IMG/VR virus record: IMGVR_UViG_3300031867_000002 | Coordinates: 32,001 to 96,000 of that record | From: a virus | Lineage: Duplodnaviria > Caudoviricetes | Length of the DNA: 64,000 nt | Strand: one strand, 5' to 3' | Shown here: positions 4,997-62,248 of the stretch, piece after piece | Layout: the number at the start of each line of letters is the position of its first letter | Numbering within the stretch: position 1 is the first letter of the stretch | Notes under the pieces: generated by a model | What the model was told of the DNA's origin: nothing | Databases searched by the model: none | What the model saw: the letters and a program-made list of their open reading frames with translations, nothing else | Translations under genes and position numbers: made by a program

Positions 4997-6292
4997 TTAA
5001 TATTTGTCGATTGTATCCTCAGAATACGGGGTTTCATTGTTATTTGTTTTCTTTGCAGTAAAACCACGTTTCTTTTCATAGCCACCACTGCTCTCTACTT
5101 TAGAATCTGGTGTACCAGAAGAACCTGTAGGTCTTCTTCTTTTACTACGTCTAATAACAAGTTCATCTTCTTCAGTAGTTTCTTCATTATCAAACTGAGC
5201 AAAGAAATCATTATTATCATTCTTCTTTCTTCCAAGTGTAGAGCTTTGAGTTACCGTCTCCATATTTGAGATAGCACCAAAAAAATCATCATCTTTTGTA
5301 CTAGAAGTAAGATTCTTTTGATATTTAGAATACATATCTTGAAGCTCTTCTTTAGGAAGATTCATGCCAGATGCGATAATTCTAACAAATTCAGGTTCAT
5401 CTACTTTATACTGTCTATGAACAAAGAACTCTTCAATGTTATTATTACCACAAAGCTTCTTCTTGATAGAAGAAAAACTTGTATCAATAACACTAAGATT
5501 ATCGTCAGAGATATTCATGAATACACCAATCTTTGTTGCAGACGGTTCAAAGTCAAGAGAAGAGGAATAATCAATAGCATCAGATACAATCTGGTCAAAT
5601 TGATTAGGATTCTTGAGCTTCTTATCAATTTTAACTTCTGTTACAAACATCATACCTGGATTAGTAATAAGCTTGTAATGGTCTGTGTCATCGATATTCT
5701 GTTCAGAATCTATAATATCAAATGCGTTTACTACTTTAATTCCTGTAGAGATATCTTGATTAGCAAGTTTTTCTGCCACAAAGGTATTGGAAGTCTTTTC
5801 AAGAAATCTTTTATTACTAACTGTTTTGATAACATAGTTACCTCCTTCAAGGTCTTTAAAATACTCAATAGTATTCTGAAGACCTCTGGTATCAGATTCG
5901 AATCCACAGATAAGAGTGATGATTACTGGTAAATCAAGTTGAGATTCAATATATTTTGCAAGTACTACAGATGCACCAGAACCAGATGCACCTTCTGTGG
6001 TAGTAATAATATTTATATATTGTATATCATCTGGAATAAGTTCATTAATGACATTAGGATTATTTCTAAGATAAGTAAGCATGAGCTTTTTAGCAGCAGA
6101 ACGTACTTTACCACATCCTGCATCTGGGTCTTCAGAGATGATAATACAATTATCTCTATAATCTTCTGGAATGTCTTTAATAGTAGAGTTTACAATACAA
6201 CACTCATCTCTATCAAGTGTACCATTCTCAATGCAATAAATCATTGCTTTGGTTGCACCTTGTCCACAACCAAATGTAAAGCTTCTGTTCAT
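4997..6292 (-). CDS. Tubulin/FtsZ-family GTPase (PhuZ/TubZ-like)
   Basis: GCGQGA (T1 loop), VNST..D, AGCGK, variant signature TEGASGSG, T7-like NIDDTD and a long charged C-terminal tail. Confidence 0.85.
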   Translation of the reverse strand: MNRSFTFGCGQGATKAMIYCIENGTLDRDECCIVNSTIKDIPEDYRDNCIIISEDPDAGCGKVRSAAKKLMLTYLRNNPNVINELIPDDIQYINIITTTEGASGSGASVVLAKYIESQLDLPVIITLICGFESDTRGLQNTIEYFKDLEGGNYVIKTVSNKRFLEKTSNTFVAEKLANQDISTGIKVVNAFDIIDSEQNIDDTDHYKLITNPGMMFVTEVKIDKKLKNPNQFDQIVSDAIDYSSSLDFEPSATKIGVFMNISDDNLSVIDTSFSSIKKKLCGNNNIEEFFVHRQYKVDEPEFVRIIASGMNLPKEELQDMYSKYQKNLTSSTKDDDFFGAISNMETVTQSSTLGRKKNDNNDFFAQFDNEETTEEDELVIRRSKRRRPTGSSGTPDSKVESSGGYEKKRGFTAKKTNNNETPYSEDTIDKY

Positions 6293-7957: not shown

Positions 7958-8008
7958 AATATCTATGCTCCTTTCTGGTTATTATGTAAAAGTTGATTTA
8001 TGCATATA

Positions 8009-8024
8009 TATATTATAATAGTGA
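8009..8024 (+). promoter_or_regulatory. Early promoter motif TATATTAT-N4-GTGA (representative copy)
   Basis: Same motif at 8595, 10167, 10744, 32758, 34253 and 62147 (+) and at 3539, 20968 and 26717 (-); variants at 25113, 49659 and 54199. It resembles the phiKZ early motif TATATTAC. Confidence 0.75.
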
Positions 8025-8097
8025 TAGCAACACAATGGTTCTATCTGAACTAGCGAGGAAACTAGATAGCAATAAAAATTTTTAAGGAGGGGTACCT

Positions 8098-8439
8098 ATG
8101 TTCGGTATCGTTAATTATGTAAATTTGACAAATGGCGTCTTAAGCGCCTATAAACACAAGACAGAGAAACACATGGAGGCAAATAACCCGAAAAAGGTTG
8201 CTATGTATATTTCTATTTACTATAGTATCAACCCTGTAGCTATAGCTGATGACAGAAACATGCATTCAATAAAGGAATCTGTTCGTAGAGATTTTGGGAC
8301 TGAGATTGAATATCTAAAAGAAAACGGATATAAAATTCGTCTTTATCCAGATTCTAATGGACAGATGCAGATTTTATTCGAGATTCCAGATGGGAAATTC
8401 TATTCAAGTACCTATCCAGAATGTGATGTTGAGTGGTAA
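8098..8439 (+). CDS. Hypothetical protein (early cassette gene)
   Basis: AAGGAGG RBS, own promoter and terminator. Confidence 0.8.
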   Translation: MFGIVNYVNLTNGVLSAYKHKTEKHMEANNPKKVAMYISIYYSINPVAIADDRNMHSIKESVRRDFGTEIEYLKENGYKIRLYPDSNGQMQILFEIPDGKFYSSTYPECDVEW

Positions 8440-8455
8440 CGTAACGTAAGTTTAA

Positions 8456-8495
8456 AAAAGAATACGACTGTCGTGAGACAGGCGTTTCTTTTTTG
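8456..8495 (+). terminator. Repeated terminator, copy 1 of 3
   Basis: AAAAGAATACGACTGTCGTGAGACAGGCGTTTCTTTTTTG; near-identical at 9181 and 11241. Confidence 0.8.
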
Positions 8496-8660
8496 TACTT
8501 AATATCATTATAATATAAATATTCACATAAGGAGGCAATACATGATATCTATGCTCCTTTCTAGTTTATATGTAAAAGTTGATTTATATACATATATATT
8601 ATAGATGTGTAAGTATAAGTTAATCATCTCATTTATAAAATATTAAAGGAGGAAAAAACA

Positions 8661-9155: not shown

Positions 9156-9180
9156 TGAATGAGCTTCAATACTGATAATA

Positions 9181-9220
9181 AAAAGAATACGACTGTCGTG
9201 AGATAGGCGTTTCTTTTTTG
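9181..9220 (+). terminator. Repeated terminator, copy 2 of 3
   Basis: One mismatch to 8456-8495. Confidence 0.8.
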
Positions 9221-9225
9221 TCTTT

Positions 9226-9237
9226 AACATCATTATA
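9226..9237 (+). promoter_or_regulatory. Late promoter motif AACA-N6-TA (representative copy)
   Basis: AACATCATTATA. The same spacing occurs at 16659, 28514, 33375 and 44934 (+) and at 4987, 6587, 16611, 48305 and 49615 (-); AACT variants precede many other core genes. It matches the AR9 late promoter consensus. Confidence 0.75.
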
Positions 9238-9269
9238 ATATAAATCCACATAAGGAGGTAATATGTATT

Positions 9270-10127: not shown

Positions 10128-10232
10128 TTATTTGGGATGCTATCATAGCATCCCAAATTTCTTTTGTATATTATTAATGTGTAAGAGGTTACTGAAAACA
10201 GTTATAAAGACTACGACCTCTGGAGGTATATT

Positions 10233-10667
10233 ATGTTTGACATTATTCGTATTACATCTATTGGTTCGACTCCTGAAACTTTATATCAGGAACTTGAAAC
10301 AGAAGAAAAAGAATCTTCTCTTACAAGAGAAGAGTTCTGGAACGATATGACTACTGACACTATTTCAGAAGAGCACTTTAATTTTCAAGCTCTTTATAAC
10401 TCCGCTGAAGATGTTATTGTTATGCGGAGATTTATAAACAGACACACTGGGAAATCAACTAATCAAATCACCAATGCTGATGAGATTGAAAGAATTCTTA
10501 CAGATTTTCTTAATGGAAAACCTGTATACGATGATGACTACTCCATTTCAAGATGTAGGGTAATGCAGATTAGAGAAAGATATTATAGATATATCTGCCG
10601 TACAACTAAATCTATACTTTACCGTAGCTACCATGAGTTCTTAAAATGGGTGAAGAATATGAAATGA
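10233..10667 (+). CDS. Hypothetical protein (early cassette gene)
   Basis: GGAGGT RBS, early motif at 10167, terminator at 10674-10711. Confidence 0.78.
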   Translation: MFDIIRITSIGSTPETLYQELETEEKESSLTREEFWNDMTTDTISEEHFNFQALYNSAEDVIVMRRFINRHTGKSTNQITNADEIERILTDFLNGKPVYDDDYSISRCRVMQIRERYYRYICRTTKSILYRSYHEFLKWVKNMK

Positions 10668-10822
10668 TAGTATAAAAGAATCCGCTTTTATAAAAGCGGA
10701 TTCTTTTTTTGCTATGCTCCGTAAAAGTTTACTATGTTACTTATATATTATTTAAGTAAGAAGAGAGTCATATTGTTTAACAATGACTCAAAAAATATTG
10801 CTTTTGAAAGGAGCAGATTACT

Positions 10823-11239: not shown

Positions 11240-11240
11240 T

Positions 11241-11280
11241 AAAAGAAAACGACTGTCGGGAGATAGGCGTTTCTTTTTTG
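11241..11280 (+). terminator. Repeated terminator, copy 3 of 3
   Basis: AAAAGAAAACGACTGTCGGGAGATAGGCGTTTCTTTTTTG. Confidence 0.8.
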
Positions 11281-11326
11281 TCTCACTAGCACAACTTTTT
11301 AGTAATGAAAGGAGATGATTCCTAAC

Positions 11327-17579: not shown

Positions 17580-17654
17580 TGGTTGGGGTAGCGGGATTTG
17601 AACCCACGCGTGACAGAGTCAAAGTCTGTTGCCTTACCGCTTGGCTATACCCCA
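17580..17654 (-). tRNA. tRNA-Gln (anticodon UUG) with encoded CCA
   Basis: TGGGGTA/TACCCCA acceptor stem, D-arm GCCAAGCGGTAAGGC, anticodon arm ACAGA-CTTTGAC-TCTGT and T-loop GGTTCAAATCC. Confidence 0.97.
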
Positions 17655-32698: not shown

Positions 32699-32757
32699 AA
32701 CAAGACCTCCTAAAAATATATTAATTGAAAGTTTCAGATTAAGTAATTATATATTTG

Positions 32758-32860
32758 TATATTATTATAGTGAATAGTAGAGGTCAGACAATGCTATTCT
32801 GAAACTCCACGAGGATATGGAGAATATAATACGTTTGCTTTTGAAAGGAGCTATTTTGTT
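32758..32860 (+). repeat. Early promoter plus conserved structured 5' leader, copy 1 (copy 2 at 62147-62248)
   Basis: TAGTAGAGGTCAGACAATGCTATTCTGAAACTCCACGAGGATATGGAGAATAT...GCTTTTGAAAGGAGCTAT. Confidence 0.85.
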
Positions 32861-33399: not shown

Positions 33400-34206
33400 A
33401 TGGATAATCCAACATATCTTTCTTTTGATTCTGGCATTACGGATGATAGAATTTATGCACATAGAGGAGATATATTTATCTGTAATGGACTATTCAAAGA
33501 ATTAGATACAATAGATAAGGATGACCATATATTAGGAAAATCTACAAGACCAGTTCTAATTATTTCTGATGATGAATACAATAGAGATATCGTAAAAGTA
33601 TTAGCATTCTCTTCTAAAGAAGGTTCTGGATATCAAGACTCTATTAACTCTTACAGAAGCATTAGGGTCCCTGGAGTTAATAACAATCCAAACCCAAGTT
33701 ATATTGATGTGTCTCAGGTATTTACTATAAATACATATCAATTAAAAGTCAAGTTAGGACATGCTTCTCAAGATATTGTAGATGCAGCTGTGGCTTTACA
33801 TACTTTACAAAATATAAATCAGAATAGTATTAGTACAATGATGAAAGTATTAAGAGATAGATTCCCAAATGCACAAGCATTTAAACAGAATAATACTGGA
33901 GTTGTTGTTAGTACAAAAAGCATGAGTATGATAGATAATATGAGAAGTCCATTTACTGATGTATTTACTAGTGTACAAAGAGTTAATGAAGAAGATTTGT
34001 TATGTGAAATCAAGAGTACCTTAAAAGAACCAGAAACTAAAGATGATGCATATGTGTTATATCAAGAGTGGTTATTAATGGGTACTGATTCATTCAGAAA
34101 TAAATATGGTTTGAGTAGGCAACAATATTATACACTTAGAGATAAGTGTGTAAATAAAATGTTGGGTAAGGTAAGTAACTTTAAGAAATACGACTGGTCG
34201 ACATAA
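33400..34206 (+). CDS. MazF/PemK-family domain fused to a C-terminal extension with possible HTH
   Basis: RGDIF, GK.TRPVLIISDDEYN, V..FSSK, SYIDVSQVFTI and L..KLG; late promoter at 33375. Confidence 0.78.
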   Translation: MDNPTYLSFDSGITDDRIYAHRGDIFICNGLFKELDTIDKDDHILGKSTRPVLIISDDEYNRDIVKVLAFSSKEGSGYQDSINSYRSIRVPGVNNNPNPSYIDVSQVFTINTYQLKVKLGHASQDIVDAAVALHTLQNINQNSISTMMKVLRDRFPNAQAFKQNNTGVVVSTKSMSMIDNMRSPFTDVFTSVQRVNEEDLLCEIKSTLKEPETKDDAYVLYQEWLLMGTDSFRNKYGLSRQQYYTLRDKCVNKMLGKVSNFKKYDWST

Positions 34207-42639: not shown

Positions 42640-43194
42640 ATGTCTAGTTTTATTATAAATCCTAATAAGAGAGATGGATACCCTGTTATAGATGATAATA
42701 CACATGATTTTGGTCCTACACAAACTACTCCATATCCAAAAAGAGAATTCTATACTGGTTCTGATTTATTAGACGGGTATCCTATAATGGATGGTTGGAA
42801 AAGTTTTAGTCCAGTACAAGATAGCATATATCCAAGTAACATGTTTAGGATTGATGCTAGTAAAATGCAAGGCTATCCATCATTTTCATTCTTTGGAGAT
42901 TTTAGTCCAGTACAAGATAACATATATCCAAGTAACATGTTTAATATTGATGCTAGTAAAATGCAGGGCTATCCATCATTCTCATTCTTCGGAGATTTTA
43001 AAAATTTTGGAGCATTTGAATTTGCTGAAAATTTAACTAAGATAACAATACCTAGAAGTGTTCGGTATGTATGTGATTACGCTTTCTGGGGTTGTAATAA
43101 TTTAAAAAAAGTTCGTATACATCCAGATTGTGTATACTTTTCACATTCTTTTCCAGAAGAATGCGAAATTCAATTCTATGAAGAAAACGAATAG
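42640..43194 (+). CDS. DGYP-repeat protein with C-terminal BspA-type LRR (adaptor A)
   Basis: Four [D/Q]GYP repeats, then GAFEFAENLTKITIPRSVRYVCDYAFWGCNNLKKV. Confidence 0.7.
   Translation: MSSFIINPNKRDGYPVIDDNTHDFGPTQTTPYPKREFYTGSDLLDGYPIMDGWKSFSPVQDSIYPSNMFRIDASKMQGYPSFSFFGDFSPVQDNIYPSNMFNIDASKMQGYPSFSFFGDFKNFGAFEFAENLTKITIPRSVRYVCDYAFWGCNNLKKVRIHPDCVYFSHSFPEECEIQFYEENE
42805..42996 (+). repeat. 96-bp in-frame tandem duplication (2 copies)
   Basis: 42805-42900 matches 42901-42996 (FSPVQD.IYPSNMF.IDASKMQGYPSFSFFGD). Confidence 0.95.
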
Positions 43195-62076: not shown

Positions 62077-62146
62077 ACAATTACCTCCTAACATTATTAA
62101 GTCATTATTAAATAGTTATTGATGTGAAAGTTAAAGGATTTGAATA

Positions 62147-62248
62147 TATATTATTATAGTGATTAGTAGAGGTCAGACAATGCTAATCTGAACTGCACGA
62201 GGATATGCAGAATATTAATCTTTTAGCTTTTGAAAGGAGCTATATATC
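62147..62248 (+). repeat. Early promoter plus conserved structured 5' leader, copy 2
   Basis: TAGTAGAGGTCAGACAATGCTAATCTGAACTGCACGAGGATATGCAGAATAT...GCTTTTGAAAGGAGCTAT. Confidence 0.85.

Follow-up and report, generated by a model that had tools for sequence, protein, structure and literature searches.

A leader made up of two small hairpins, present in eight copies in four related jumbo phages, is a genuine, previously uncatalogued structured element of narrow distribution. An early promoter of the type described in phage AR9 lies directly 5' of every copy, and compensatory substitutions maintain both stems. The reading that best accommodates these observations, to which we would assign about an even probability, is that the element serves as a 5' stabilizer of early mRNAs combined with a ribosome-contact module.

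The window, i.e. the whole 64,000-nucleotide stretch of DNA that was analyzed, corresponds to bases 32001–96000 of a virus record of 224,632 bp that has direct terminal repeats and a G+C content of 31.7%. The phage carries split multisubunit RNA polymerase beta genes, and its best protein matches among named phages are to the Bacillus phages PBS1 and AR9 (33% identity) and to Staphylococcus jumbo phages (about 30–33% overall); these features point to a distant, uncultivated jumbo phage of the AR9/PBS1 group. The sole host clue, and a weak hint at most, is an endolysin-like protein, one segment of which is 50% identical to its counterpart in a genome of Acutalibacteraceae (Clostridia). The window also contains two tandem 96-nt repeats, 94% identical, within a coding region (42804–42995).

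Copies of the leader and their spread

The genome of the window's phage harbors four copies of the motif, three in the window and one outside. Copies B (32772–32826, + strand) and C (62161–62214, + strand) are near-identical, with a common 22-nt core for which 0.01 occurrences are expected by chance; the diverged copy A (8023–8068, + strand) is recovered by a covariance model (E = 0.096), and copy D lies at approximately 208.2 kb of the genome. The initial annotation had reported near-identical leaders near positions 32775 and 62164, preceding unrelated ORFs, and a diverged third copy at 8032–8066, and all three stand with the slightly different boundaries given here. The ORFs downstream of copies A, B, C and D encode 113, 150, 161 and 117 aa, respectively, with start codons at 8098, 32861 and 62249 for copies A, B and C; they are mutually unrelated, and no Pfam match was found for the ORFs downstream of any of the four copies.

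Relatives were retrieved via a neighboring gene encoding 370 aa, which yielded jumbo phages at 47–89% protein identity, of which five complete genomes were taken (G000 denotes the window's phage, G001 its closest relative, and G002 and G003 further relatives; L160 is a member on a metagenome contig). A search for further homologs had been proposed initially, and besides copy D it brought four members from three uncultivated relatives: G003a and G003b, which lie in the same phage; G001a, in the closest relative, which consists of hairpin 1 only, with a shorter loop and without hairpin 2; and L160, the single real member added by the metagenome scan. Judging by the flanking genes, L160 is the positional ortholog of copy B, G001a that of copy D, and G003b that of copy A. 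The search combined BLAST, pattern scans and the covariance model R1 over six whole related genomes (1.19 Mb), in which the model recovered the known members only, along with weaker matches that lie inside ORFs and have no promoter. In three more distant related genomes the motif was not found. Scans of IMG/VR for the hairpin-1 core, the loop-1 pattern and hairpin 2 gave only chance matches beyond the known relatives, blastn detected no copy in named phages, and no AR9 sequence matches the motif.

In agreement with the initial view that the element is not a known riboswitch, the motif has no match at gathering score in Rfam, and even at E-values up to 10 no Rfam match overlaps any of its copies. 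The sole Rfam or ARAGORN match in the window, and the only one at gathering score, is a tRNA-Gln (UUG) gene at 17580–17654 (− strand). Readings of the element as a riboswitch, attenuator or terminator were rejected: the 55-nt core is composed of two simple hairpins with no conserved multi-helix junction, and no U-run follows hairpin 2.

Early promoters and the two-hairpin fold

The promoter preceding each copy has the form TATATATTAT-N6-G+1, that is, TATATATTAT-N4-GT-G. This form corresponds to the AR9 early promoter consensus, AAATATATATTAT-(6N)-G+1, which is read by the virion RNA polymerase and was mapped by dRNA-seq and primer extension (PMC5312081). In copy B, the core TGTATATTAT followed by N6 ending in GT (32756–32771, + strand) matches the AR9 consensus and predicts a start at G 32772; in copy C, the core TATATATTAT with TATAGT (62145–62160, + strand) predicts G 62161; and in copy A, TATATATTAT with AATAGT (8007–8022, + strand) predicts G 8023. 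With an AR9-type promoter directly before each copy, the early RNA should, by homology with AR9, begin at the first base of the motif. A transcription start downstream of the motif, which had been named as an observation that would speak against the element, is not indicated on present evidence; the +1 predicted from the AR9 consensus coincides with the first base of the motif.

When copies B, C and L160 were folded from the predicted +1, the minimum-energy and the centroid structures were the same, consisting of hairpins 1 and 2 and an extra hairpin at the Shine-Dalgarno sequence. The 55-nt core has a folding energy of −14.5 kcal/mol (z = −3.0), with 77% of the ensemble in the two-hairpin fold, and the z-scores of the cores of leaders folded in this manner range from about −3.0 to −3.2. 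A fold begun at position 32776, the coordinate of the initial annotation, gives a z-score of about 0 and misses the two-hairpin structure.

Stem 1 starts precisely at the +1 that the AR9 consensus predicts. In copy B, hairpin 1 (32772–32799, + strand) consists of an 8-bp stem, GAAUAGUA/UGCUAUUC, and a 12-nt loop, GAGGUCAGACAA, and is supported by minimum-energy and centroid folds as well as by covariation; in copy C (62161–62188, + strand; covariation and fold), the stem is GAUUAGUA/UGCUAAUC. Copy A has a shorter stem at +1, GAUAG/CUAUC, with the loop CAACACAAUGGUU (8023–8045, + strand), identified by the covariance model and by folding. Pair 3 of the stem is A-U in copy B and U-A in copy C, a compensatory swap. 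One base is lost from each arm of the stem in L160, and the same holds for G003a. Overall, 98.3% of helix 1 is paired, and three pairs are changed on both sides, in addition to the paired deletions. This helix differs from the one proposed initially, UCAGA-N9-UCUGA, which is broken in two of the seven scorable sequences, lacks any double-sided change and is equaled by every one of the 500 shuffles; the ambiguous base W assigned to its loop turns out to be one half of the A-U/U-A swap in the outer stem GAAUAGUA/UGCUAUUC. We therefore rejected the UCAGA/UCUGA stem, which is present only in the minimum-energy fold of copy D. Outside the window, an early leader at genome position 128396 (− strand) has the 5' arm GAAUAGUA, a GAAA tetraloop and a perfect 3' arm, i.e. 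the hairpin-1 stem is reused there with a different loop.

Hairpin 2 follows after a linker of 4–5 nt. It comprises the stem CUCCA/UGGAG with the loop CGAGGAUA in copy B (32805–32822, + strand) and the stem CUGCA/UGCAG with the same loop in copy C (62193–62210, + strand), both supported by covariation and fold, such that the C-G to G-C compensatory swap noted initially is real. So is the third variant described at the time, a CUAG/CUAG stem with a similar loop core, CGAGGAAA, in copy A (8050–8065, + strand; fold). The complete set of hairpin-2 stems is CUCCA/UGGAG, CUGCA/UGCAG, CCCCA/UGGGG, CUAGA/UCUAG, CUAG/CUAG and CAGG/CCUG; relative to copy B, L160 shows a U-A to C-G replacement.

Over the alignment of the eight members, which are few, include some recent copies of each other and were aligned by a model built on the same structure, 98.9% of the cells are paired and 7 of the 13 pairs show changes on both sides. 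None of 500 column shuffles reached any of the covariation measures of the two-hairpin structure under the same alignment, and when the 3' partners were slid by 1–3 columns, pairing collapsed to 22–57%. Thus, the original claim of a conserved structured leader with compensatory changes withstands this analysis.

Further downstream, a weak hairpin, which copies B and C and L160 all show in their centroid folds, surrounds the Shine-Dalgarno sequence; it has the sequence GCUUUUGAAAGGAGC in copy B (32837–32851, + strand) and AGCUUUUGAAAGGAGCU in copy C (62225–62241, + strand). The stem of this hairpin is invariant and hence has no covariation support. The module (U/A)GCUUUUGAAAGGAGC is shared more widely, at 32837–32851, 62225–62241 and approximately 10797–10813 in the window and in L160, among leaders whose 5' parts differ.

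The similarity among copies could also stem from a promoter-plus-leader module that spread by recombination between early cassettes, through recent copying or gene conversion, and has no function beyond the promoter. Several observations are of the kind such a history would leave: over 46 nt, copies B, C and D of the one genome share 96% identity; copy D is a hybrid that joins the 5' arm of B to the 3' arm of C; the cargo genes differ even between orthologous sites; and in the closest relative, the site orthologous to B has the same promoter followed by a short leader without the motif. Furthermore, copy B contains a partial duplicate of a −10-like element just upstream of the promoter core (window 32745–32771, TATATATTTGTATATTAT) compared with the orthologous promoter of the closest relative, which resembles a scar left by recombination at the point where the promoter-leader module was attached. 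However, across phages, compensatory substitutions and paired deletions keep both stems intact, the leaders of orthologs are about 93% identical compared with about half for the DNA just upstream of the promoter, and unrelated early leaders also start with hairpins at +1. Recombination alone would not explain the compensatory changes, and we consider it distinctly improbable as the full account.

Hairpins at the predicted start of other early transcripts

To place the motif among the other early leaders, early promoters were defined by a 10-mer core with at most one mismatch, followed by N4-(G/A)T-G and with a ribosome-binding site and start codon downstream, and a +1 hairpin by an uninterrupted stem of at least 6 bp starting at +1 or +2; random G-starts served as the control. 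Such stems follow 11 of the 23 promoters in the window's phage (control 10.6%, p = 8 × 10−6), 10 of 21 in G001 (control 9.8%, p = 1 × 10−5), 11 of 27 in G003 (control 11.3%, p = 9 × 10−5) and 7 of 17 in G002 (control 9.9%, p = 7.5 × 10−4), that is, 41–48% of the early promoters in four phages compared with about 10% in the controls. Within the same leaders, stems starting between +7 and +26 occur at a rate of 4–5% per offset. The enrichment is weaker in the two most distant relatives (5/23 and 4/12). In the first 50 kb of AR9 (1–50000), a +1 hairpin was found in only 1 of 8 annotated early leaders, which are about 30 nt long; the 5'-hairpin habit is accordingly specific to the clade of the window's phage. 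Thus, the motif is one family within a clade-wide habit of hairpin-initiated early transcripts.

The agreement with AR9 covers the promoter core, its spacing to G+1 and the first bases of the leader, given that the annotated AR9 early leaders in the same first 50 kb start with GAUA or GUAA; in contrast, those leaders are short and mostly unstructured. An uncharacterised motif in AR9 early 5' UTRs was noted in the transcriptome paper (PMC5312081).

A hairpin located this close to the start might act on the DNA or at initiation, as a structured initially transcribed region or a non-template hairpin that helps the virion RNA polymerase to open or escape the promoter. The hairpins indeed start within one base of the predicted +1, and many leaders share with AR9 the conserved first bases G(A/U)(A/U)A. 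Nevertheless, the stems can vary freely in sequence, the early promoters of AR9 function in the absence of hairpins of this kind, and both the G.U pairs and the strand bias favor RNA: in 64 of the 82 leaders, folding is better for the sense than for the antisense strand (p = 3 × 10−7), a bias to which base composition contributes but which fits structure in RNA rather than in duplex DNA. On these grounds, action on DNA or at initiation appears highly improbable.

Other elements recur in the early cassettes. A second repeated early-leader family, GUAAGAGGUUACUG...ACGACCUCUGGAGG, occurs at window positions 10165–10235, at genome positions 156164 (− strand) and 187295 (− strand), and at position 5837 (− strand) of G001. 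In this family, a 5'-proximal AGAGGU can pair with ACCUCU abutting the Shine-Dalgarno sequence, such that the whole UTR would be closed by a single long-range helix. Terminator-like hairpins, GACUGUCG...GGCGUUUCUUUUUU, close early cassettes at 8455–8520, 9180–9245 and 11240–11305 in the window; together with the shared promoters, these repeated hairpins give each early cassette common ends.

Conserved loops and the putative role in early mRNA

Loop 1 (GAGGUCAGACAA) is identical in six copies from three phages, in which the proteins are only 72–89% identical. The sequence from the start of the loop reads GAGGU, six bases and AUG, with GAGGU at positions +9 to +13 in 7 of the 8 copies; in copy A, ACAAUG is kept and GAGG is missing. 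This arrangement resembles a ribosome-loading site for a mini-ORF; its translation, or the capture of a 30S subunit there, would adjust how the first cassette gene is translated or be coupled to that translation. The Shine-Dalgarno-like sequence, the spacer and the AUG are conserved in six copies, the AUG is retained even in the diverged copy A, and in L160 and G003b the stop codon overlaps or abuts the main start codon. Yet the peptide is conserved in neither length nor sequence (3, 3, 3, 3, 6, 16, 17 and approximately 22 codons), the mini-ORF of copies B, C and D ends at least 58 nt before the main start, the AUG of copy A lacks an upstream Shine-Dalgarno sequence, and stem 1 pairs the UG of this AUG codon, so that we regard translation of a mini-ORF as very unlikely to be the function. 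The identity of loop 1 and the mini-ORF reading frame make the capture of a ribosome, or of another sequence-specific factor, at this loop possible.

In hairpin 2, four different stems carry the loop CGAGGAUA/CGAGGAAA, and the loop contains GGA in copies A, B, C, D and L160. The initial annotation compared this loop to the binding sites of CsrA/RsmA. The SELEX consensus of such sites is RUACARGGAUGU, with GGA in a hairpin loop, and the B. subtilis hag leader is one example. In more general terms, hairpin 2 and perhaps loop 1 could be the site of a sequence-specific RNA-binding protein, either host CsrA or an early or middle phage protein, that, by bridging the loop to the Shine-Dalgarno sequence, would repress the translation of some early genes or set its timing. 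The constancy of the loop on changing stems is compatible with such a site, as is the fact that loop 1 does not vary among six copies, an indication that something recognizes this sequence specifically. The GGA, moreover, is looped out of a short hairpin, and the Shine-Dalgarno sequence 34 nt downstream contains another GGA (a bridgeable pair of this kind is found in A, B, C and L160), within the CsrA bridging range of 10–63 nt (PMC7652899). The details of the putative site fit less well. The loop-2 GGA is replaced by CUAGGUUA in G003a and by UGGUAUU in G003b, and G001a lacks hairpin 2; the ACA found without exception upstream of GGA in CsrA SELEX ligands (PMC7652899) is ACG here, in CACGAGGA; and the phage genome encodes no CsrA (no PF02599 match). 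A trans-acting complement of loop 1 or loop 2 was sought in the phage genome, and no antisense partner of either loop was found. Binding by CsrA/RsmA is accordingly not supported, and a protein site of the general kind described here seems to us rather improbable.

A related and still unlikely, although less remote, proposal is that loop 1 and the CGAGGAUA loop are sites for a dedicated phage or host RNA-binding factor that times translation or shut-off; this factor might be a standby ribosome, or a regulator or nuclease acting late in infection. If true, AR9-like jumbo phages would possess a control element for early mRNAs that belongs to a new class and does more than shield the 5' end passively.

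Stabilization of the 5' end, the reading we favor, can be formulated as follows. The 5' end of the early mRNA would be made by the phage virion RNA polymerase, and because the predicted start G is the first base of the 8-bp stem, the RNA would be born with a paired 5' end and no single-stranded overhang. A paired end would hinder 5'-end-dependent decay in Firmicutes, which involves RppH, the 5' exonuclease RNase J1 and 5'-sensing endonucleases. Shine-Dalgarno-like purines in loop 1 (GAGGU) and, in most cases, also in loop 2 (GAGGA, in 5 of the 8 copies; copy A has only the loop-2 tract and no loop-1 tract) could hold a 30S subunit near the 5' end, in a manner comparable to STAB-SD or aprE-type stabilizers, and the third, weak hairpin may partly cover the real Shine-Dalgarno sequence in copies B and C. 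In this account, the repeat, its place directly behind the promoter core, the two covarying hairpins and the clade-wide hairpins at the predicted +1 are observed, whereas the start site (from homology with AR9), the stabilizing effect and any ribosome contact are inferred. The covarying 5'-terminal stem at the predicted +1 thus leads us to favor, as the initial annotation did, a stabilizing RNA element, and the most likely role appears to be a conventional one, namely, 5' protection with or without ribosome contact.

Leaders of this kind have precedents. The leaders of T7 gene 10 and T4 gene 32 are coliphage 5' stem-loops. Along with the 5' hairpin of E. coli ompA, which is cited as a 5' stem-loop stabilizer (PMC3997798), they appear to resemble the present element in the paired extreme 5' end, a likely barrier to decay on highly expressed messages, and differ from it in sequence and in the decay setting (RNase E as opposed to RNase J/Y). 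The Firmicute stabilizers, namely, the aprE leader, the cryIIIA STAB-SD and the phage SP82 polypurine sequence (PMC3997798), are closer: here, too, a predicted 5'-terminal stem precedes unrelated cargo genes, and the Shine-Dalgarno-like purine tracts near the 5' end are not the main start site. In particular, as in STAB-SD, a Shine-Dalgarno-like sequence is present near the 5' end, apart from the ribosome-binding site proper. There is, however, no sequence similarity to these stabilizers, and the element differs in having two hairpins with the Shine-Dalgarno-like tracts in the loops and in that its role is a predicted one. Across the early leaders, Shine-Dalgarno-like tetramers are found in the first 30 nt in 33% of the cases compared with 18% in shuffles, a difference that is suggestive and is confounded by the short leaders.

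A plain stabilizer leaves unexplained why six copies from three phages have exactly the same loop 1. The motif is also dispensable, because it is missing at the B-orthologous site of the closest relative and because stem 1 of copy D carries an A.A mismatch. Co-regulation of the cassette genes by the element, as originally suggested, is not needed to account for the data, given that the shared early promoter suffices and that the motif is missing at this one orthologous site.

The product of the second gene of the copy-B operon (window 33400–34206, + strand) is 268 aa long and has a PemK/MazF-like endoribonuclease domain at its N-terminus (Pfam E = 1 × 10−9; PHROG 'MazF-like growth inhibitor'). 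This protein could be an early host-mRNA nuclease, the activity of which would make protected phage 5' ends useful.

The wider importance of the element is limited by its narrow spread, with eight copies in four phages, and by a function that is likely to be conventional. The promoter-plus-leader module, of approximately 70 nt, could be used as an expression part in Firmicutes. The handling of messages after transcription is poorly understood in AR9-like jumbo phages, which have their own RNA polymerase, and this leader family provides a concrete, testable structure, in a clade where nearly half of the early promoters precede a hairpin at the predicted +1. These clade-wide hairpins suggest selection to shield early phage mRNA, possibly during the destruction of host mRNA.
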